A DNA stretch of 64,000 bases from the sequence record PQ850628.1. One strand, written 5' to 3'. A program made the position numbers and the translations under genes. This document shows, in pieces, positions 1,610 through 63,084 of the stretch. Source of the DNA: Escherichia phage StefiGeyer_Bas88. Below the pieces are notes generated by a model. The model was not told the origin of the DNA and searched no databases. It was given only the letters and a program-made list of their open reading frames with translations. Position 1 is the stretch's first letter. Each line of letters starts with the position of its first letter.

Positions 1610-3853
1610 ATGGCTAAGAAGAAATTTAGTGAAGATATTTTGGATGAATTACGCGTTGACCTTCAACGTCGATTCAATTATGCACAAGGTTATGTAGACC
1701 TCGCTGTAAAAGGTTATTCTCGTGAGGCATGGGAATACTTCTACGGAAACTTACCAGCTCCAGTAACTGCTGGAAGCTCTAGTTGGGTAGACCGTACAGT
1801 ATGGGAGTCTGTTAACGGAACTCTCCAAGATATCATTAACGTATTCTGTTCAGGCGATGAAGCGGTGACGTTTGTTGCGGACAACCAAGCAGATTCGGAT
1901 GCAGCTGATGTAGCAACTAAGCTGGTAAACCAAATCTTGCTTCGTGATAATCCGGGATATAACATCATTTCCTCAGCGGCTCAGGAATGTCTGGTTACAC
2001 GTAACTCTTTTATCAAATACTATTGGGATGAACAAACCTCTACCCAAACAGAAGAGGCTGAGGGCGTACCTCCAGAAGCTTTGGCTGCATACGTACAAGG
2101 TATGGAAGCAGGCGGACTTCAAGATTTAGAAATCTTTACCACTGAAAATGATGATGGAACAGTGGACGTTAAAGTAACTTACAAACAAACAGTAAAACGT
2201 GTTAAAGTAGAATATGTTCCTTCAGAGCAAATCTTTGTTGATGAACATGCTACCTCTTTTGCAGATGCTCAGTATTTCTGTCATCGCACACGTAAATCTA
2301 AAGATGATTTATTAGCAATGGGCTTCCCTAAAGACGAGATCGAAGCGTTTAACGACTGGACTGATACAATGGACACCACTCAGTCTACAGTTGCTTGGTC
2401 ACGTACTGACTGGAGACAGGACATTGATGCAGACATTGGTGTGGACACTGAAGATGTGGCTTGCATGGTTTGGGTTTATGAGCATTACATCCGTACAGGT
2501 GTATTGGATAATAACAAAGAATCTAAACTCTATCAAGTAATCCAAGCAGGTGAGCATATTCTCTCTTGTGAAGAAGTAACTAGCATTCCGTTTGTTACTT
2601 TCTGTCCTTATCCTATTCCGGGCTCCTTCTATGGTCAATCCGTGTATGACATTACTAAAGATATTCAAGACCTACGTACAGCACTTGTCCGTGGTTACAT
2701 TGATAACGTTAACAACGCAAACTATGGTCGATATAAAGCCATTGTAGGAGCCTATGACCGTCGTTCTTTACTAGACAACCGTCCGGGTGGTGTAGTTGAA
2801 ATGGAGCGTCAGGATGCGATTGATCTCTTCCCTTACCACAACCTACCTCAAGGTATTGATGGTCTGTTAGGAATGTCTGAAGAGTTGAAAGAAACTCGTA
2901 CAGGTGTTACTAAACTTGGTATGGGTATTAACCCTGATGTATTTAAGAATGATAACGCATATGCAACCGTAGGTTTAATGATGAATGCTGCACAGAACCG
3001 TCTCCGTATGGTCTGTCGTAACATTGCTCATAATGGTATGGTTGAACTAATGCGCGGTATTTACAACCTTATCAGAGAAAATGGTGAAGTTCCTTTACAG
3101 GTTCAAACCCCTCGTGGTATGGTTGAAGTAAATCCTAAACAATTACCAGCTCGTCATAATTTACAAGTTGTTGTAGCTATCTCTCCTACTGAGAAATCAG
3201 AACGTGCACAGAAACTGATTAGCCTGAAGCAATTGATTGCTGCTGATGCTCAGCTTGCACCTCTCTTTACTCTGGAGCAAGATCGTTATATGACTGCACA
3301 GATCTTTGAGTTGATGGGTATTAAAGACACTCATAAATATCTTATGCCTCTTGAACAGTATCAACCTCCTCAGCCTTCTCCGATGGAAATCCTCCAGCTC
3401 GAGATGACTAAAGCTCAGGTTGAGAACGTACAGGCTTCTTCTCAGAAGATGATTGCTGATGCATTCGACCAGCGTGAACGTACTACGTTTGAACAGCAGA
3501 AAGCTGCGGACGAGTTCAGCTTACGTCAAGAAGAATTGCAATTCAAGCAAGAGAATGCTGCTGATCAGATGACTCTTGAAAACCGTAAGGAAGATAACTC
3601 AGCTACTCTTGAACAAGCTAAACATAAGCTTTCTCTCCTTCAGCAACAGGTTCGTCAATATGAATCTATACTGAAAGAACTCCAGATGACCATGAATCAT
3701 CAGGTTGATCTTGAGAAGGTAGACCAGCAAGCTAAAATTCAAGATAAGACTTTGGAACTCCAAAAGAAAGAAGCAAATGAAACTAAGAAAGAACAACAGA
3801 GTTCTCTCAAAGATTCTAGGATTCCTAATAGAAAGCTTGGTAGTAGAAAATAA
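1610..3853 (+). CDS. portal protein (putative)
   Basis: 747-aa ORF directly downstream of terL, ATG preceded by GAGGGAGAG; size and position typical of portal; long charged coiled-coil C-terminal tail. Confidence 0.65.
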   Translation: MAKKKFSEDILDELRVDLQRRFNYAQGYVDLAVKGYSREAWEYFYGNLPAPVTAGSSSWVDRTVWESVNGTLQDIINVFCSGDEAVTFVADNQADSDAADVATKLVNQILLRDNPGYNIISSAAQECLVTRNSFIKYYWDEQTSTQTEEAEGVPPEALAAYVQGMEAGGLQDLEIFTTENDDGTVDVKVTYKQTVKRVKVEYVPSEQIFVDEHATSFADAQYFCHRTRKSKDDLLAMGFPKDEIEAFNDWTDTMDTTQSTVAWSRTDWRQDIDADIGVDTEDVACMVWVYEHYIRTGVLDNNKESKLYQVIQAGEHILSCEEVTSIPFVTFCPYPIPGSFYGQSVYDITKDIQDLRTALVRGYIDNVNNANYGRYKAIVGAYDRRSLLDNRPGGVVEMERQDAIDLFPYHNLPQGIDGLLGMSEELKETRTGVTKLGMGINPDVFKNDNAYATVGLMMNAAQNRLRMVCRNIAHNGMVELMRGIYNLIRENGEVPLQVQTPRGMVEVNPKQLPARHNLQVVVAISPTEKSERAQKLISLKQLIAADAQLAPLFTLEQDRYMTAQIFELMGIKDTHKYLMPLEQYQPPQPSPMEILQLEMTKAQVENVQASSQKMIADAFDQRERTTFEQQKAADEFSLRQEELQFKQENAADQMTLENRKEDNSATLEQAKHKLSLLQQQVRQYESILKELQMTMNHQVDLEKVDQQAKIQDKTLELQKKEANETKKEQQSSLKDSRIPNRKLGSRK

Positions 3854-3862
3854 GGACACTAA

Positions 3863-4099
3863 ATGAATACTAGACAACAATTCAATAAAGAGCATGCCGC
3901 CGCTTTGGCGGCTCTCAATCATAACGGCATTCTTGACGCAGCATTAGAGGCATTAAAAGAAACCCTCATGAAAGACATAGTTTTAACTGATGTGCATGAG
4001 TCAAAGAAACGCGAAGAGTGTTATCAAAAGTATAAAATGGTTGGTAGCTTAAAAGAGGTCATAAAAGCTGCTATCAATAGTGCAGGAGATAATTCCTAA
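3863..4099 (+). CDS. hypothetical small protein
   Basis: 78-aa ORF between portal and scaffold genes, same strand, tight spacing. Confidence 0.4.
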   Translation: MNTRQQFNKEHAAALAALNHNGILDAALEALKETLMKDIVLTDVHESKKREECYQKYKMVGSLKEVIKAAINSAGDNS

Positions 4100-7894: not shown

Positions 7895-7925
7895 AAGGCT
7901 GCCTTCGGGTGGCCTTTTCTCATTT
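7895..7925 (+). terminator. intrinsic terminator-like hairpin after capsid gene
   Basis: AAGGCTGCC-TTCG-GGTGGCCTT imperfect stem with UUCG loop followed by TTTTCTCATTTT. Confidence 0.5.
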
Positions 7926-7990
7926 TAAGACCCTTATAAGGAGATATGTAATGTATTCTCTTTGTCTATACACAACTAGGAGGACAAGTT

Positions 7991-23255: not shown

Positions 23256-24887
23256 ATGCAACAAACATCTTACGCGTATCTTCGTAGTCAAGACCCGCGA
23301 AATCAGATTTATGGTGATCGTCAGAGAGGGGTTACGGCCTCTCCTTACATGTCCAGACCTGCTGGTCCAGCAGCTGACTTATCTATGTATCAGCGTCCAG
23401 CTCTTCCTGCTGTCTTAGGAGCTACAGTTGAACAAGCACAGGCTGACCAAGAAGCTATGATGAATCCGGGATTCAAGCAACGTCTTTATGAACAGCAGGG
23501 TATTTCCACTCCTACTAGTTTGGCTGGTATTGATGCTGGCATTAATCCGGGTGATGAAGGCTCTATGATTCCTGCTGATGTAGCTCCTGCTTCTAGCCCT
23601 CTTCCGGTTACAGCTCCTGCTAAACCAATTGAAGAGTCAGATAAAGAGTTTGCCCCTGAACAAGTACAACAGGCACAAGGTGTCATGAATACTATCGCTT
23701 CTGGTGTTCCTCAGGGTGAAGGTATGAGCGGTGCTACTCGTGCTGCTGATCAGGAACGTGTGAATCAGGATATTCTTAAAGTTGCACAATCTAAGAACCC
23801 AGCAGATGCGTGGAAGACTATGCAGAAACAGCCTTTCTATCAAAACTCTAGTTTCTATACAGGATTGATGGGTGTGGGTCTTTCTATTATGTCTGGTAAA
23901 TCTCCGATTGAGGCATTCCAGATTGGCTCTGGTATGGCATCTCAGGATGAAGCTAAACAACAATTAGAACTGAACCGTGATAACCTGATCGAACAAGGTT
24001 ACTCTCAGGATTCTGTAGCTGCTGCTGTAGCTGCTGGTGATCCTTCTCTTCTGAAGATGCGTCAGATTAGTCCTCAAGAGAAGATGGCTCTAGCCGCTCA
24101 AGACGAAGCTCGTGCTAATCAAGAGTGGGACAGACGTCAACAGATTCAAGAGAATTCGATGCGGGAACGTGCTGCTGAAACTCGACGTGCTGCTGAACAA
24201 CGTGCTGATGCTCAGTTTGAGAAACAGAAAGAGTTGATTGGTTATCGTGATCAAGTTAAGGCAGACCGTGCAGAACAAGCTGCTCAAAGTTTTAACTTTA
24301 ACCCGAAAGAAGTTCGTCTTGCTCAGAACACTGCTGAAGGTACGGTTGCTAAACAGTGGGCAGAGAAGGCAGGACTGTTTAACCAGTCTCATAAAGACTT
24401 GGATTTGGCAGACAAAGCAGTTAAGGATGGTGATTATCAGACTGCTCGTTCTGCTTACATGCAGGCTATTATGAACTCCGCAAGAGCTGAGATTGGTGCT
24501 AACCGTTCTCTGCAAGCTGATGACTTATCACACTTCGCAGAAGACCCATCCATTCTTGTTAAGGTAGGTAACACTTGGTCTCTTAAAGCTGGTTATCGTC
24601 CATCTGATGCTGCTCTGTCTTATGCTCGTAAACAAGCGACGGTCGGTGCTACTTCTGCTGAGAAAGGTGTTAAAGATTCTAAGAAAGCAACTATTGAAGC
24701 TTATGTTGGTTCTGGTATGGACAAGAAACGTGCAACTGCTCTTGTTAACCGAGCTATTCCTTCTGCTGGTTTCTATGACCCTCTCGGTGTATTCGAAGCA
24801 GAGTCTGAAGCAGCTGTTGGTGGTTCAGCAACCAATCCTAAACTTAACGGTGCTTTGTCTTCTAACACTGATTGGATGACTCAGTAA
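23256..24887 (+). CDS. hypothetical virion protein
   Basis: 543-aa ORF with RBS AGGAG; charged helical regions. Confidence 0.5.
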   Translation: MQQTSYAYLRSQDPRNQIYGDRQRGVTASPYMSRPAGPAADLSMYQRPALPAVLGATVEQAQADQEAMMNPGFKQRLYEQQGISTPTSLAGIDAGINPGDEGSMIPADVAPASSPLPVTAPAKPIEESDKEFAPEQVQQAQGVMNTIASGVPQGEGMSGATRAADQERVNQDILKVAQSKNPADAWKTMQKQPFYQNSSFYTGLMGVGLSIMSGKSPIEAFQIGSGMASQDEAKQQLELNRDNLIEQGYSQDSVAAAVAAGDPSLLKMRQISPQEKMALAAQDEARANQEWDRRQQIQENSMRERAAETRRAAEQRADAQFEKQKELIGYRDQVKADRAEQAAQSFNFNPKEVRLAQNTAEGTVAKQWAEKAGLFNQSHKDLDLADKAVKDGDYQTARSAYMQAIMNSARAEIGANRSLQADDLSHFAEDPSILVKVGNTWSLKAGYRPSDAALSYARKQATVGATSAEKGVKDSKKATIEAYVGSGMDKKRATALVNRAIPSAGFYDPLGVFEAESEAAVGGSATNPKLNGALSSNTDWMTQ

Positions 24888-24952
24888 GACCTAAGTCCTA
24901 TCTCTTATAATGTATATAGGAGGTAGGACATTTTTATTTATAAGGAGAAATT

Positions 24953-30642: not shown

Positions 30643-31485
30643 TTACCAAGTTTTATCTAACCATGACCATTCAAAGAGGTCACCTTCAGCTTGTCCGACG
30701 AAGAGCAATCGAGCATTTTCTAACATCTTAGCTTCTGCTTCTTCCTCGAACCTCTTATAGTATTCCATTCGTATAATATGATAAAGAGTCCACTTATCGA
30801 ATACCTTCTCAATAAGTTTGATAGCAGCTTTGCTACCAATACCCTTACGACGCATAACTAAGTTACCGCCCCACATCATTTCAACTTTCTCACCACATCC
30901 GGGGATGTTGTCTGTACTGTCCCCAATCAACATCTGATAGAAGAAGTTCTGCCATGCTACTTCCTCTGGTACATAATGAGGGGGTACTTCTTTCTGTCGT
31001 TCACCACAAGCCCAGCGATAATGCCATCCGGGAGTGATTAACAAATCCTTATCACGAGTACAGATGATTGTGTTCTTTTCTATACGCTGTCGTTCAGCGA
31101 GTGCATCATCTGCTTCTCTGCCAAACACTTCAACATACTGGTAATGTTCTTTGATATAATCACTAACGTTCTGCCAGTGATGTGGCCTTTCTCCCGGAGG
31201 TCGGTTAGCTTTATAACCTTGCTGCTTGGCAACATCGAAGCGGAAGTTTCCACCTTCGCTGAAATAAAAGATTGTTCTTTCACAACCAGCTCTTGAGATG
31301 ATTACATCAATCTTATGTTGGAGACGTTCAATCAAGAATCCATAATCAACTGGAACACGACCTGTGTCTAGGAAAGGATGCTCTTGTGTAAGAGCACCAA
31401 CCTCATACCGTAGAACATCTGCATCCACAATTGCTACTTCAGGATAGATTACATCAGACATAGAGACCTCTCCGTGTCCCTTCAA
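30643..31485 (-). CDS. 5'-3' exonuclease / flap endonuclease
   Basis: Motifs IVDADVL, GREADDALA, TRDKDL and H3TH-like LIGDSTDNIPG typical of Pol I 5'-exo / T4 RNase H family. Confidence 0.75.
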   Translation of the reverse strand: MKGHGEVSMSDVIYPEVAIVDADVLRYEVGALTQEHPFLDTGRVPVDYGFLIERLQHKIDVIISRAGCERTIFYFSEGGNFRFDVAKQQGYKANRPPGERPHHWQNVSDYIKEHYQYVEVFGREADDALAERQRIEKNTIICTRDKDLLITPGWHYRWACGERQKEVPPHYVPEEVAWQNFFYQMLIGDSTDNIPGCGEKVEMMWGGNLVMRRKGIGSKAAIKLIEKVFDKWTLYHIIRMEYYKRFEEEAEAKMLENARLLFVGQAEGDLFEWSWLDKTW

Positions 31486-32050
31486 TAATCCACTCCAAAT
31501 CCTCCACTGCCTCTTCTACAGAACGGTCATTAAAGAGGAGGTAGGTTGGTAGGTTTGTTCCTTCAATATAAGAACGGGAGTCCCCTTCAAAGGAGCATCC
31601 ATCTCGGAGAATCTGAACTACTCGAACATGGAAACGTTTTTCCAGTTCTTCAACTTCTGCTTTAAACCCACCATCAGAGAATACAATAACATCATTCTGT
31701 GTTGGGATGCGTTGTTGAATACTGCTAACAGCAAGTTTACCCATGCAGGTATCACCAAACATTGGTTTCAGGTAGTTCTCACTAGTCGCAATCATTAAAT
31801 CTCGAACTGTCTTACCGCCCCATTCAGGACGGCTATATTCTTTCCACTCACGGTCGTTGTATAGCTCCATGAACTCATAAAGAGGAAGTCCTAATGCAGC
31901 AGCAGCCACTCGATACATAGGCTCCTTAAAAGCCTTTACATGCGGTCTAAACTCAGTGTTACCGACGGTCTTCTCTAACCAAGCATTAGCGATTGTATCT
32001 TTACCACAACCCGGTGGTCCATTCAGAATTACTACTAATGGTTTACTCAT
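31454..32050 (-). CDS. P-loop nucleotide kinase (dNMP kinase-like)
   Basis: Walker A GPPGCGKDT at N-terminus, 198 aa. Confidence 0.55.
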   Translation of the reverse strand: MSKPLVVILNGPPGCGKDTIANAWLEKTVGNTEFRPHVKAFKEPMYRVAAAALGLPLYEFMELYNDREWKEYSRPEWGGKTVRDLMIATSENYLKPMFGDTCMGKLAVSSIQQRIPTQNDVIVFSDGGFKAEVEELEKRFHVRVVQILRDGCSFEGDSRSYIEGTNLPTYLLFNDRSVEEAVEDLEWIIEGTRRGLYV

Positions 32051-32700
32051 TATTGAATCATCCCTTGAAGATCTTCTTTATCAAAGTGCTTCTCTACTAC
32101 AGCTTCATACAGATCACGATTCTCTGCATATCGGCGATAGAAGGTTCCGTGTGAAATTCCTAACTGCTGCTGAATATGATCATGAGGTATTCCAAGGAAG
32201 AGCATAGAGAACATGCTTGCCATTTTCTTGGTATCCATAATATCACTTAAGTCTTGGAAGAAGAAAAAGATTCTAGATTCCAAGAATGGGTCTCCAGTAG
32301 AGTCATGCTTATCCATCGCAATCTCTAAAGGACTTTCCCATGAGTTCATCTCAGGGGGTCTAAACATATCAGCCTCTGGAATAGAGTAGATACGTCGGTC
32401 TCCAACTGTCTGACGGTTAGAACGAATTGACCAGATGATATTCTTAACACGATAAGTCATGTGTTCAATATCTTTTTCATCAGTGAGCAGAAGTTCTTCT
32501 TGCTTTGCAAACACAAAACGCCAAGCGTTCAGTAACACTTCCTGAGCAACATCCTCTGCTTCGTGATAATCTTTAATGTCATACATAAAATAGCGATGCA
32601 CAACTTTCCAATTCTCTCGATAGAATTCATCGAAGGTTGGATAATATTTAATAGGAATGCCATGAATACGATAGCGTGTGGGTGTTGTCTTCTTCTTCAT
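32050..32700 (-). CDS. phage-encoded sigma-70 family factor
   Basis: Region-2-like [16 protein letters not shown] and C-terminal HTH-like [22 protein letters not shown], resembling ECF-type sigma factors. Confidence 0.55.
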
Positions 32701-32724
32701 AAGTCGTCCTTAACTTACTTTATA

Positions 32725-32949
32725 TTAAACTACACAGAACAAATACATTGCTGTGTCAGGACAAGGGATGGCTGTCTGAATACCACTTACCTTAATCCAC
32801 ATATCTTCTTCAGGGTCGTAATAGGCCCAATAGGATTGATCTCCATCTACAAAGAATTTAAAAGTTCGTCCCCAAACCTGATTATTATATTCCCATACTG
32901 CATGAAGTTGAGTAACACCTTCTGGTATTGTAAGTTCCGCTCTGATCAT
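32725..32949 (-). CDS. hypothetical protein
   Basis: 74-aa ORF in operon context. Confidence 0.35.
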   Translation of the reverse strand: MIRAELTIPEGVTQLHAVWEYNNQVWGRTFKFFVDGDQSYWAYYDPEEDMWIKVSGIQTAIPCPDTAMYLFCVV

Positions 32950-33206
32950 TGTATTCCTCTCTCCTTGAGAGCTTTCAGTAAACCATTATGGTTAGCAGCA
33001 CAGGTTGTGTAGTTGTCCTGATACCACTCTAATGTTGTTGCAAATGCCACTCCCTGTGCACTCTGAAGCAAAGGGAGATCAACATCACACTCAGCTTTTA
33101 GGTTTGTTGGTAAGGGTATTAGCTGCCTGCTGTTGTCGCTCATTGAACAAGCTGACATACTCATCGCTAGCGCACACATTGTAAAAAACTGGCTTAGTCT
33201 TCTCAT
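32946..33206 (-). CDS. o-spanin candidate (outer-membrane lipoprotein)
   Basis: Signal peptide ending in lipobox-like MSAC; Pro-containing body; start embedded in the 3' part of the upstream TM/coiled-coil gene in another frame. Confidence 0.4.
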   Translation of the reverse strand: MRRLSQFFTMCALAMSMSACSMSDNSRQLIPLPTNLKAECDVDLPLLQSAQGVAFATTLEWYQDNYTTCAANHNGLLKALKERGIQ

Positions 33207-33438
33207 AATGCATCTCTTTGTAAACAGTTTCCGTGTTCTTCTTCCAGTTAGTTAAACTAGTTAGAACTTTCTGAGCTACTTCATCAGCAGCCTTAGCTCT
33301 CTCAATCTCAATCTCTTGTTGTTTCTTCTCTTGGTCAAGAGTGTTACTATCATTTCGATATTGTTCAAACTTCATTCCACCAAAGAATACAAGAGCTGTA
33401 AAGATTAAGAAGCCGATATTGTTTTGAAGCTTTTCCAT
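33091..33438 (-). CDS. i-spanin candidate
   Basis: ATG at 33438 preceded by GGAG; N-terminal TM helix IGFLIFTALVFFGG followed by charged coiled coil; overlaps the lipoprotein gene. Confidence 0.4.
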   Translation of the reverse strand: MEKLQNNIGFLIFTALVFFGGMKFEQYRNDSNTLDQEKKQQEIEIERAKAADEVAQKVLTSLTNWKKNTETVYKEMHYEKTKPVFYNVCASDEYVSLFNERQQQAANTLTNKPKS

Positions 33439-33450
33439 TTTAACTCCAAC

Positions 33451-33474
33451 GAAAAAAGCCACCCGAAGGTGGCT
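33451..33474 (-). terminator. intrinsic terminator (minus strand)
   Basis: Minus-strand RNA AGCCACC-UUCG-GGUGGCU followed by UUUUUUC. Confidence 0.6.
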
Positions 33475-33497
33475 AAGCTATTACAAGGAGAGATTCA

Positions 33498-34238
33498 TTA
33501 GAAAGGGCTGTCATCTTCTTCAAAGGTAGATTGCGGCTCTTCATTAATAGTAGGGATACTTGGAGTCGCGTCTTTCTGTTCAGTGTCAGAAGCGCGAGTA
33601 ACTTCACGACCAGCCAGAGGAATGTTTTTAGCATCATTAGCTTGGGTCAGGAGGTTACGTTGGAATGGGAACATAGCTTGATAAGCAGCCAAGTTAGCGT
33701 CAGTTTCAGCATACGGTTCGAAGAAGATCAACTCACTACGAGGAGCACCTACAGCATCACGATACTTAGTTGGGATGGGGGTGATGCTCTTGATAGAGTT
33801 TTTCTTCTCACCAGCTTTGTTGGTGTAAGAATTAACCAGAATGTTGACAGGCTGACCAAGCAGCATATCTTTGAACCAACCCAAATCACCTTTCAGTGCT
33901 TGAACACTTGGGTCGATCATTTTAATTAGGTTCAGAATACCAGAGTTCTTAGCTCGTGGGTTTACATCGAAGGATTTAAACTGACAAGCAGGACGTGGGT
34001 CCAATGCCTTACCATCATTATCTGTACCAGTCGCGTCAACACCAATCAGTTCAAATGCCAAGTCCATACGGAAAGCGGGGTTCTTAGGAGTAACTGCTTT
34101 GGTCTTAGGGTCAATCCAAGGGTCACGATTGTGAACACCTAAACCTACTACACGAACAATGCGTGCTTCGTACTCGCCATCAGGGATTACATCGTAGTTG
34201 GATTTACGGGATACAGACAGTTCAGGGATCATAGACAT
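33498..34238 (-). CDS. single-stranded DNA-binding protein (putative)
   Basis: 246 aa ending in acidic tail FEEDDSPF resembling the SSB C-terminal DDDIPF tip; replication-module context. Confidence 0.5.
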   Translation of the reverse strand: MSMIPELSVSRKSNYDVIPDGEYEARIVRVVGLGVHNRDPWIDPKTKAVTPKNPAFRMDLAFELIGVDATGTDNDGKALDPRPACQFKSFDVNPRAKNSGILNLIKMIDPSVQALKGDLGWFKDMLLGQPVNILVNSYTNKAGEKKNSIKSITPIPTKYRDAVGAPRSELIFFEPYAETDANLAAYQAMFPFQRNLLTQANDAKNIPLAGREVTRASDTEQKDATPSIPTINEEPQSTFEEDDSPF

Positions 34239-34580
34239 ATTAATATTTCCTTATATAAATTTAAGATTGTTGCTCTCTTTGAGCGGTTGGTATACTATAT
34301 ACATTACACCTATACAGATAAGGTTCTATTATACTATAACCTTTTTGGTAGTAGATAACAGTAAGTAGTAATGTATATATGGTATAGCTAGTAAAGCTAT
34401 TGCAGGCTTGTATATTGGGCAATCATCGTAACCCTTGCAAGTACCGAAGGGCAGGAGACACCTGCGAGATAAAAATAGAGAATTAAGGAAACCCTTGATT
34501 TAGGTTGAGGACTCCTAGGACTTTGATTCTCTATTAAAATCAAAAGAAAACTAATTAACTTAACTTAAAAACAATAACTT
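34239..34580. promoter_or_regulatory. 342-bp AT-rich intergenic region with promoter-like elements
   Basis: Minus-strand TATAAT (complement of 34328-34333) with weak -35; palindromic CCCTTGCAAG...CGAAGGG segment; largest non-coding gap in the replication module. Confidence 0.3.
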
Positions 34581-35201
34581 CTACCATTCTAAAAGACCTT
34601 TAAAGCTAGTTTGTTCTACTGTTCTCTGAAAAGGTGAGTTAGATTCAGCTTGTTTACTTAACATCTCTTGTACTTCGCTGGTAATTGGATAATCTTTTTG
34701 TAATAAAGAAGCTACCCACTCTTTCCTACTTTCTAGTTCTTTTCTAATCTCTTGCAGAGATACAGCTCTATAATCAATTTGTTCCATAGAAGTACAAAAG
34801 TATCTCCAATCTTTAATAGTAGAATTATGAGTATGAGCATAGATATTATACTTCCCTCTCATTTCATCAGAGTGAATAGGAATATGAGTTACCCAAAACT
34901 CTTTGTACTTATAATCACCACTGATGTGTCTAAAGACTTTCATCATATCAGGGAGAAGTTCTAATCTGTCATGGTTTCCTAGGACAAGATGTTTCTCTCC
35001 TTTTACTTCAGCGATAATATCAAGTGCATATTTCTCAAACACCCAATCACCTGTAAAGAAAGTTTTATCACGTTTAGTAACATGGTCAAAAGCTGCTAGG
35101 ATAGCTTTGTCATGTTCTTCAATACTACTAAACTTCTTCCTAAAGTTACAGATGTTACGATGGCCTAGGTGACCATCACCTGCAAAATAAACTTCAGCCA
35201 T
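34581..35201 (-). CDS. calcineurin-like metallophosphoesterase
   Basis: Motifs AGDGHLGH, TGDWV, LGNHD, THIPIH, AHTHN. Confidence 0.7.
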   Translation of the reverse strand: MAEVYFAGDGHLGHRNICNFRKKFSSIEEHDKAILAAFDHVTKRDKTFFTGDWVFEKYALDIIAEVKGEKHLVLGNHDRLELLPDMMKVFRHISGDYKYKEFWVTHIPIHSDEMRGKYNIYAHTHNSTIKDWRYFCTSMEQIDYRAVSLQEIRKELESRKEWVASLLQKDYPITSEVQEMLSKQAESNSPFQRTVEQTSFKGLLEW

Positions 35202-36636: not shown

Positions 36637-36803
36637 TAATTCCTTTCGTAGATTTTGAGAACTGTACCACCATCTGCTTCAATCTGAGCAACGACTTCAT
36701 CGCACTCTTCATCAGTATAAACCAGTTGGTTATGAAATTTACCAGTGGAATCTTGGTAATAGATGTTCCACTTTGGGGCGGGTTTACGAATCAGGTCCAT
36801 CAT
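36637..36803 (-). CDS. hypothetical small protein (55 aa, below ORF-track cutoff)
   Basis: ATG at 36803 preceded by AGGAG; translation MMDLIRKPAPKWNIYYQDSTGKFHNQLVYTDEECDEVVAQIEADGGTVLKIYERN; fills an otherwise empty gap. Confidence 0.4.
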
Positions 36804-36934
36804 TTAGCTTTCTCCTCTCGTTCTACCCATGTTTGAAATAATTCACCATAAGCTTTAGCGTCTTCAAAACGACCTTCATCCTGTGCGAGCTTTTGTTGCT
36901 TCAAGCACCATTCAGAACTTTTTACTTCTTCCAC
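36800..36934 (-). CDS. hypothetical small protein (44 aa, GTG start)
   Basis: GTG at 36934 preceded by AAGGAG; stop overlaps the next ATG (ATGA-type coupling). Confidence 0.3.
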   Translation of the reverse strand: MEEVKSSEWCLKQQKLAQDEGRFEDAKAYGELFQTWVEREEKAK

Positions 36935-40429: not shown

Positions 40430-40473
40430 AACTCCTTAATATATCAGTGTACACTAAGGAGTATACATTATGT

Positions 40474-45475: not shown

Positions 45476-45527
45476 ACAATATTCTTATACTGTATATACA
45501 TTTGAGAGTTATCATATCTACTACCAA

Positions 45528-51170: not shown

Positions 51171-51356
51171 TTATTCTACTTCGAAGTGTTTGATCACACC
51201 AGTCAATACATCAGATTGGAACGTACCTACTAACTCTGCGCCTCGGAAGAAATTGACATTTGTTCCAAGTGTTTCAAAGCGTTCTGCTTGAATGTCCAGA
51301 GATTGAATATTCCCTTCTGAGTTTACTGTACGAAACATGATTGTGTATTTATTCAC
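51171..51356 (-). CDS. hypothetical protein
   Basis: 61-aa ORF, ATGA coupling with the upstream gene. Confidence 0.35.
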   Translation of the reverse strand: MNKYTIMFRTVNSEGNIQSLDIQAERFETLGTNVNFFRGAELVGTFQSDVLTGVIKHFEVE

Positions 51357-51595
51357 AGAGTTGTTACTCCCTTATCTTCTTGTGCAATTGCGATGATACG
51401 CTCAACACATTCCATTGAATATTTATCACCTCGTTTAAGGAAGGTGACAATTGCAGAGAACTGATTACCAATCATTCTCTTGTTTGTGATTCCAAACTCT
51501 TCACAGAGTTGGTTAATAGCTTTACGAGAACCAACAATCAGAGGTTCTTTTTGTTCGGTCATTCCACGACTGATCAAATCTTCGATAGACAACAT
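51353..51595 (-). CDS. hypothetical protein
   Basis: 80-aa ORF. Confidence 0.4.
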   Translation of the reverse strand: MLSIEDLISRGMTEQKEPLIVGSRKAINQLCEEFGITNKRMIGNQFSAIVTFLKRGDKYSMECVERIIAIAQEDKGVTTL

Positions 51596-60670: not shown

Positions 60671-60688
60671 ACAACCTCTTCTTTGAAC

Positions 60689-60716
60689 TTAAAAAAGGAC
60701 TCTCCTAAGAGAGCCA
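60689..60716 (-). terminator. intrinsic terminator (minus strand)
   Basis: Minus-strand RNA GGCUCUC-UUAG-GAGAGUCC followed by UUUUUU. Confidence 0.6.
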
Positions 60717-60911
60717 AGCTTTAAGGCCAATTAAATAGATATCACCCAATATCTGTGGATAACCTGCTCTTAAAATATTCTATCCGACGGATGTTCGAGG
60801 ACTATTCCTCTCCCTAGCATCGGCCCCATACGGGTAAGATTAAATTAAGTTTAGGTTAGTTGAGCCAGAATAGCTCACATAGCCCTCTGATACTCACAAG
60901 GGCTATAGATG

Positions 60912-61163
60912 TTACTCTGTGGCTCCGTCAAAGCGAAGGATTGCTGTTGGAACAGGGATTACAACCATGTCAATCTCTAAACGGAAAAGATGTCCTGTAC
61001 TTAGCTGAACTGCTGTTACAGGTTTAGCGATACCACCAACAGATGCTGAGGGGATTCGAATAAAGAAATCCCCCGGATATTCCGTTGCACGAAATACATC
61101 TCCCGGTGACATATCCTTTACTTGGATAATTGATTCAGGAGGGGTTTTATTAGCAATTTGCAT
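60912..61163 (-). CDS. hypothetical protein, PGD-motif paralog family
   Basis: 83 aa; SIIQVKDMSPGDVF...GDFFIRI...VVIPVPTAI shared pattern with 62284-62550 and 62554-62808. Confidence 0.4.
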   Translation of the reverse strand: MQIANKTPPESIIQVKDMSPGDVFRATEYPGDFFIRIPSASVGGIAKPVTAVQLSTGHLFRLEIDMVVIPVPTAILRFDGATE

Positions 61164-62808: not shown

Positions 62809-63084
62809 TTAACCACCTTTAGTTATGGACCAATTTATGAGAGAACTCTCGGAAGAATGCTTTCATAAATAGGGGGAGGGGACGAATCCTCCCATATCCT
62901 ATTAATTAATGTTGCATGTAAGACCTAACAATCCGATGCTGTAGTGGATAGCGTAAAATGCTTACCGGCATTAAACCCAGCCCATGAGGGGCTTATGTGA
63001 TTAAAATGCTCAACATTGAGCGGTTAGTTGATAGGAGATCTGAAGTCCTATCTCAAAGGACTCTCGTAAGAATCCTTCACGATA

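Follow-up and report, generated by a model that had tools for sequence, protein, structure and literature searches.

Does Escherichia phage StefiGeyer_Bas88 (Bas88) carry its own specificity subunit for the host RNA polymerase (RNAP), and to which promoters would such a subunit direct the enzyme? The question is raised by an open reading frame (ORF) at 32050-32700 on the minus strand of a 64,000-nucleotide stretch of Bas88 DNA (sequence record PQ850628.1), the whole of which we refer to as the window. From the letters alone, an earlier reading (the original prediction) had described its 216-aa product as a sigma-70 family factor of the phiEco32 type, with a region-2-like segment and a region-4-like helix-turn-helix (HTH) segment. 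We conclude, with a probability of roughly 0.93, that this ORF is an ortholog of phiEco32 gp36 that directs Escherichia coli RNAP to the middle and late promoters of the phage. The window belongs to a phiEco32-like podophage and has the ATG of the terminase gene as its position 1; its closest records are phages TH34, TH42, TH43 and ECBP2, the last of these classified in Suseptimavirus, Gordonclarkvirinae, and phiEco32 is ~80% identical.

The sigma gene and its protein

32050-32700, minus strand: sigma factor gene, ortholog of phiEco32 gp36, 216 aa, recognised as an ATG-to-stop ORF and by homology

An AAGGA Shine-Dalgarno sequence lies 7 nt 5' of the ATG of this gene, and its stop overlaps the start of a deoxynucleoside monophosphate (dNMP) kinase gene at 32050. 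The protein is matched by PHROG 1740, 'RNA polymerase sigma factor', over residues 1-215 (E=2.9e-44) and, at full length, by chain F of PDB entry 9M7Y (E=4.9e-119), which is a 2025 cryo-electron microscopy open complex of E. coli RNAP with gp36, gp79 and the promoter P68 (Xu et al., NAR 2025, PMC12276001). It is 81% identical to phiEco32 gp36, with 214 of 216 residues aligned, and 100%, 99.1% and 96.8% identical to the sigma proteins of TH42, ECBP2 and SU7. The alignment with gp36 gives a sigma2-like N-terminal domain (~1-103), a long linker and a sigma4-like C-terminal domain (~140-216), and the HTH-like segment (~164-208) aligns with the sigma4-like C-terminal domain of gp36 in 9M7Y.

The residues through which gp36 makes its reported DNA and clamp-helix contacts are kept identically in the window sigma (15/15). 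Unchanged are the acidic contacts to the clamp helix (D44, E47, E49, D50 and E54), the fork-junction residues Y83, R84 and W90, and the residues that contact the bases at -14 to -11 (E79, H80, S91, S94 and N95), while Y186 and R187 of gp36, which make the -34/-37 contacts, are present as Y188 and R189. In the flap-tip groove four of five residues are identical, and the conservative M138L is the sole change among the 20 residues listed. The window sigma also has a two-residue insertion in the inter-domain linker relative to gp36.

Several observations weigh against the conclusion that the ORF encodes a gp36-like sigma factor. All experimental support comes from phiEco32, where the biochemical characterisation of gp36 reportedly dates to 2008-2012, and not from Bas88. 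When the window protein is searched singly, the Pfam Sigma70_r2 match (residues 26-61, E=5e-4) scores 20.3 bits, under the 24-bit gathering score; the NCBIfam sigma70-ECF model TIGR02937 (residues 23-191, E=1.7e-4) reaches 21.2 bits against a cutoff of 42.9; and no region-4 family is matched in the Pfam search, as is also the case for gp36. The local gene order differs as well: genes 35 and 37 flank gene 36 in phiEco32, whereas their products, gp35 (GTP-binding domain) and gp37 (macro/Appr-1-p domain), have no counterparts here. Finally, gene 36 of phiEco32 has its own sigma70 promoter (PMC4281155), visible as TGGACA-18-TATAAT, of which a sigma70-type scan of the minus strand upstream of the window gene found no clear counterpart.

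The low single-protein scores extend to the NCBIfam sigma subfamily models, all of which are far under their cutoffs, so that every curated threshold for extracytoplasmic function (ECF) sigmas and sigma70 is missed. We built a profile from an alignment of five family members, namely the window sigma, gp36 and the sigmas of phage 7-11, Proteus phage J3S and Aeromonas phage LAh_9. Along their whole length, ECF sigma structures align with this profile (SigW, 2.2e-8; SigL, 3e-8; RpoE, 2.4e-6), and the alignments to SigW and SigL run through region 4 (up to profile positions 179-182 of 190). Sigma70_r2 is detected in all five members, with a best E of 5.6e-6, and Sigma70_r4_2 in two of the five, both among the three distant sigmas. 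The window protein is a divergent ECF-like member of the sigma70 family, outside every curated ECF group. These results bear out the original prediction on the 216-aa ORF, on both of its segments (through Sigma70_r2 and the alignment with the gp36 C-terminal domain) and on its phiEco32-type identity, and what it noticed goes far past anything to be expected by chance. The comparison with gp36 and ECF sigmas that had been proposed as its check gives 81% identity to the former and, for the family profile, a best match to SigW; and with the ECF matches, Sigma70_r2 in five members and Sigma70_r4_2 in two of the distant ones, the profile searches do not give the absence of regions 2 and 4 that had been named as the refutation. 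Among the neighbouring proteins scanned (31454-35201), none matched an anti-sigma family.

Promoter elements of the gp36 type and the gp79 partner

Six gp36-dependent promoters have been mapped in phiEco32, upstream of genes 6, 13, 26, 40, 58 and 68 (PMC8948821; PMC4331800; PMC4281155), and they share the consensus tAATGTAtA, with the transcription start site (TSS) 6-8 nt downstream (PMC8948821; PMC4331800). Binding of gp36 to core RNAP and initiation at these promoters have been described (PMC12276001; Pavlova 2012 as cited in PMC8948821), and in P68 G-37 and A-34 are contacted by the C-terminal domain of the sigma factor and needed for activity (PMC12276001). Equivalents have been predicted in ECBP2 (P4, P11, P24, P35, P54 and P66, with P35 the counterpart at the P40 position; PMC8948821 Table S3) and in other relatives. 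Five of the six published positions fall inside the window, the sixth, P6, being to its left, and each of the five carries the element:

7949-7957, plus strand: P13 equivalent, predicted late promoter, TAATGTATT; TSS ~7964, 42 nt 5' of the gene 13 homolog (ATG 7991)
24885-24916, plus strand: P26 equivalent, predicted late promoter, with a TAAGACCTA box (-38 to -30) and TAATGTATA at 24908-24916; TSS ~24923, 45 nt before the gene 26 homolog (ATG 24953)
34298-34306, minus strand: P40 equivalent, predicted middle promoter, TAATGTATA; TSS ~34291, 68 nt before the ATG at 34238
40462-40470, minus strand: P58 equivalent, predicted middle promoter, TAATGTATA; TSS ~40455, 41 nt before the gene 58 homolog (ATG 40429)
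45495-45526, minus strand: P68 equivalent, predicted middle promoter, bipartite TGGTAGTAGATA-N12-AAATGTATA, with AAATGTATA at 45495-45503; TSS ~45488, 46 nt before the gene 68 homolog (ATG 45457)

The DNA flanking the P13 equivalent is 85% identical to the P13 region of phiEco32. WAATGTATA occurs five times in the window against 1.36 expected, a count that one of 100 shuffles reaches, and all five occurrences are intergenic, where intergenic DNA makes up ~8-9% of the window. In agreement with this, a de novo search for 8-mers returned AATGTATA as the most intergenic-enriched (5/5 intergenic, p=3e-6), and no other 8-mer found in at least four intergenic regions comes close. Four AATGTATA sites and the TAATGTATT at 7949 are each followed, in the same orientation and at 27-67 nt, by one of the homologs of genes 13, 26, 40, 58 and 68. 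Counted from the TSS, position -34 is A throughout and position -37 is a purine in most sites, which fits the contacts made by Y186 and R187 of gp36.

The two late promoters, P13 and P26, also share a TAAGACC(T) box at -38 to -31 (window 7924-7931 and 24885-24893, plus strand), as they do in phiEco32, and its register matches that of the GGTAGTAG box in P68. The TAAGACCTA box is not enriched genome-wide (23 sites versus 17 expected) and is of note solely at P13 and P26. The box that the two late promoters share hints that the upstream elements are class-specific, differing between late and middle promoters.

The motif discovery proposed in the original prediction thus leads to the published promoter element. 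Its expectation of unrecognised phage promoters was right in that phage promoters are present, but their consensus, their positions and the ECBP2 sites had already been published. Of the two candidate regions that it named, 34239-34580 does hold the P40 equivalent on the minus strand, together with a second gp36-type site on the plus strand, and 60717-60911 has no gp36 element, being instead a structured spacer that ends in an intrinsic terminator; the promoters at 7949, 24908, 40462 and 45495 lie outside both.

The window also encodes the protein with which gp36 acts:

51353-51595, minus strand: ortholog of phiEco32 gp79, 80 aa (tblastn 80% identity, E=1e-41; PHROG 8339, 6e-51)

In phiEco32, gp79 inhibits the sigma70 and sigmaS holoenzymes and co-activates the gp36 holoenzyme; it displaces region 4 of sigma70 and sigmaS, and stabilises the C-terminal domain of gp36 on promoters (PMC12276001). 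In Bas88, the sigma factor would bind E. coli core RNAP and target promoters that have AATGTA centred at -11.5 within tAATGTAtA and an upstream contact at about -37/-34. The gp79 ortholog would displace region 4 of sigma70 and stabilise the C-terminal domain of the phage sigma, and, acting together, the two proteins would redirect RNAP away from host and early genes and towards the middle and late classes. We infer the core binding, the promoter specificity and the effect of gp79 from experiments on the 81%-identical ortholog.

Could the window protein be a gp36-family sigma whose specificity has diverged, so that it acts at other, unrecognised promoters and not at the AATGTA sites? After all, 19% of its residues differ from gp36, the linker has the two-residue insertion, and the distant homolog gp47 of phage 7-11 uses a different bipartite motif (PMC8948821). 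We consider this very improbable, as all the base-contacting residues of 9M7Y are identical in the window sigma, and AATGTATA is both kept at the orthologous positions and the top intergenic-enriched 8-mer, with no rival near it. That the protein is instead an ordinary HTH DNA-binding regulator of, for example, the TetR type, and not an RNAP subunit, has a negligible probability: the HTH-like segment searched alone gives weak, non-significant TetR matches over ~40 residues (TetR_N, E=0.22; a TetR chain, E=0.21), whereas the complete ortholog co-purified with RNAP from infected cells and is a subunit in the solved holoenzyme structure (PMC12276001), and ECF sigmas are reached with the family profile at 2e-8.

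A second site in the spacer upstream of gene 40

The 342-bp spacer at 34239-34580, in which the P40 equivalent lies, contains a further site of the gp36 type:

34346-34379, plus strand: predicted bipartite gp36-type promoter, TGGTAGTAGATA-N12-TAATGTATATA; TSS ~34384, zero mismatches to the P68-derived pattern

Here TGGTAGTAGATA at 34346-34357 stands at a fixed distance 5' of an inverted TAATGTATATA at 34369-34379. The site diverges from P40, is antisense to the neighbouring genes and points away from every gene. The window has exactly two copies of the perfect 32-nt bipartite pattern, one at this site and one at the P68 equivalent, and phiEco32 (NC_010324) likewise has exactly two, at 36681-36712 (+) and 46893 (-). 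A scan of the window at up to three mismatches gave three matches against 0.01 expected. The third of them, at 3838-3869 (+), is TGGTAGTAGAAA-N12-AATGAATA with two mismatches; it is not in phiEco32, and we set it aside as chance or lineage-specific. It lies where the portal gene meets gene 9, with the scaffold and capsid genes downstream of it. The plus-strand site in the spacer agrees with P68 at all the contacted or required bases (G-37, A-34, A-14, A-13, T-12 and G-11), the GGTAGTAG box being in the register that puts G at -37 and A at -34.

Ten diverse phiEco32-like phages, among them ECBP2, MN05 and myPSH2311, were aligned across the spacer. The P40 element is unvarying in them, as are both boxes of the plus-strand site (10/10 phages), and the 12-nt stretch between these boxes varies in sequence, never in length. 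In myPSH2311 a 130-bp insertion separates P40 from the plus-strand site, and the promoter unit is unaltered. The plus-strand element is not present in the distant phages 7-11, J3S and LAh_9, where the spacer before the gene 40 homolog is 47-103 bp. In the records of 4E8 and SU7 the promoters annotated here are on the minus strand only, and no plus-strand promoter is annotated in the records that were inspected. The searchable literature, which did not include the original mapping (Pavlova 2012), reports no antisense transcript, plus-strand promoter or origin for these phages.

Downstream of the predicted TSS lies a conserved non-coding element:

34384-34545, plus strand: near-invariant non-coding element of ~160 nt, from the ten-phage alignment; single copy per genome

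It is 92% identical to phiEco32, compared to ~78-84% for the surrounding region, and together with the plus-strand site it corresponds to 36681-36873 (+) of NC_010324. It has no ORF and no Rfam match, and it is followed by an AT-rich tract (34530-34589, GC 15-22%). At its 5' end, the putative transcript would form a hairpin in which two base pairs have changed in a compensatory way and others have gone from G-C to G-U, which keeps the pairing on the plus strand only, and further hairpins follow within the element. Covariation is confined to the 5' hairpin because the rest of the element is invariant, and the z-scores for folding are modest and alike on the two strands (-1.75 for plus, -1.56 for minus). 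Folding and covariation are thus compatible with an RNA or a DNA element, and with either strand. Scans of IMG/VR with the DNA pattern and with the gene 40 protein returned five contigs each, all close relatives, which added no diversity for covariation. In ECBP2, MN05 and myPSH2311 a ~45-nt internal segment (window 34404-34445) is swapped for an unrelated ~70-nt module, GCACGGGAC...GAGAGACTACC, with identical flanks.

Judged by its sequence and conservation, the plus-strand site is probably a working gp36-dependent promoter. It might instead be kept as a protein-binding or replication-origin DNA element, or as an inverted copy beside P40. This we think unlikely, though some points favour it: the site is followed by no gene on its strand, it is unannotated in the records inspected, and the folding statistics of the downstream RNA are weak (z=-1.75). 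Such a reading is harder to square with two boxes that stay fixed in ten phages around a spacer constant only in length, with the identity to the validated P68 at each contacted or required base, with exactly two perfect sites per genome, or with the myPSH2311 insertion, which parts the site from P40 and leaves it undisturbed. If the site is a working promoter, it may also be undescribed, and would be a seventh gp36-dependent promoter conserved across Kuravirus and Suseptimavirus; for the two properties together our confidence is tentative and falls somewhat short of even. Its product could be a small or antisense RNA, dependent on the phage sigma, that opposes early read-through into the gene 40-sigma operon, or its transcription could prime or activate a replication origin. 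The origins that we have in mind are of the design of the T4 middle-promoter origins oriF and oriG and of the T7 primary origin.

Sigma expression, neighbouring features and related systems

The P40 equivalent is followed first by the gene 40 homolog, and two further features lie between this gene and the sigma gene:

33498-34238, minus strand: gene 40 homolog, 246 aa
33457-33474, minus strand: intrinsic-terminator-like hairpin, AGCCACCTTCGGGTGGCT then TTTTTT, separating the gene 40 homolog from the spanin and sigma genes
32742-32750, minus strand: weak candidate gp36-type element of low confidence, cAATGTAtt (G-37, A-34), ~45 nt before the sigma ATG

The gene 40 product has no functional assignment in PHROGs or Pfam, and a PDB profile search with its family gave no match. 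It has an acidic tail with a DD(D)xPF tip that is invariant across distant homologs, and its gene lies directly upstream of the sigma gene in 7-11, J3S and LAh_9. We take this tip to resemble the C-terminal DDDIPF of the E. coli single-stranded DNA-binding protein (SSB) and the acidic tail, ending in Phe, of T7 gp2.5. From this C-terminal motif we take the gene 40 product to be a probable phage SSB, with P40 as the gp36 promoter that drives it. The leader AACCGCTCAAAGAGAGCAACAATC at the 5' side of this gene (34245-34290, minus strand) is unvarying in the ten phages, which is more than is expected of a simple leader.

At the place equivalent to the hairpin at 33457-33474, the record of 4E8 annotates a terminator. 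A 74-aa ORF (PHROG 30479) lies upstream of the sigma gene. The cAATGTAtt element is inside the 3' end of ORF 32725-32949 and is kept in SU7, a conservation that is uninformative because the element overlaps coding sequence; it could allow autoregulation of sigma. The sigma gene may be expressed by read-through from upstream promoters, with possible autoregulation in addition.

The other candidate region falls within a conserved early-region spacer of 241 bp (60671-60911, minus strand) that is 87-88% identical to the gene 90/91 spacer of phiEco32 and has a structure at either end:

60874-60907, minus strand: stable hairpin TATAGCCCT...AGGGCTATG, just 3' of the stop of ORF 60912-61163; not a promoter
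60698-60715, minus strand: intrinsic terminator, GGCTCTCTTAGGAGAGTC then CTTTTTT, at the downstream end of the spacer, where SU7 and 4E8 annotate a terminator

The 34-nt sequence of the hairpin is found again in phiEco32 at 67988-68021. The spacer as a whole folds better than its shuffles (z=-2.46), with a structured middle, and it has no RNA family match, no AATGTA on either strand and nothing convincing in a sigma70-type scan. Possible readings are a small RNA, made by processing or termination, and an attenuator of the early operon. A near-copy of the arm of the terminator at 60698-60715 is present at 63055-63071. Scans for tRNAs and Rfam families over the whole window and both candidate regions gave nothing, or chance matches far under their gathering scores (SNORD58, TarB and STnc100).

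Of the known systems, that of phiEco32 is closest, with the same neighbourhood of exonuclease, dNMP kinase, sigma, spanins and gene 40, the gp79 partner, and the promoter element at orthologous positions; the sigma region is syntenic with phiEco32, SU7 and 4E8. The sigmas of Suseptimavirus (ECBP2, SU7, TH42 and TH34) show essentially no difference from that of the window. More distant are gp47 of Salmonella phage 7-11 (SaPh711_gp47) and the sigmas of Grimontviridae and Lahexavirus, which are homologous at 22-27% identity and are encoded beside a gene 40 homolog. Like gp36, gp47 sends host RNAP to late promoters, but it recognises a GTAAtg-N16-aCTA motif, has no gp79 partner and lacks a middle class (PMC8948821). 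Region 4 is detectable by Pfam in the 7-11 protein, in contrast to the window sigma.

The ECF (group IV) sigmas SigW, SigL and RpoE share the two-domain sigma2/sigma4 layout and the size of ~200 aa. ECF promoters have the motifs 'AAC' at -35 and 'CGT' at -10, which the window element AATGTA does not resemble, and the partner that regulates the phage sigma, gp79, is an activator. Compared to ECF sigmas, gp36 has a rearranged first helix and sigma4-like helix 4, and binds the flap-tip helix differently (PMC12276001). The AsiA/MotA and gp55 proteins of T4 are analogous, in that a small phage protein disables region 4 of sigma70 and a second protein gives specificity (comparison in PMC12276001). 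However, the T4 proteins are unrelated, and the specificity factor of the phiEco32 type replaces sigma70, whereas that of T4 rides on it.

The sigma factor itself is already known, an identical protein being in GenBank and its 81%-identical ortholog having a solved holoenzyme and mapped promoters. The practical value of this analysis is one of annotation. The ECBP2 gene is labelled RNA polymerase sigma factor in RefSeq, while the records of several relatives in Suseptimavirus carry theirs as 'hypothetical protein', and positions exact to the nucleotide can be given for the middle and late promoters of the window. New biology may lie only in the gp36-type promoter conserved on the plus strand, with its non-coding target. 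If this proves true, a non-coding RNA or a replication origin would join the regulon of this model sigma.

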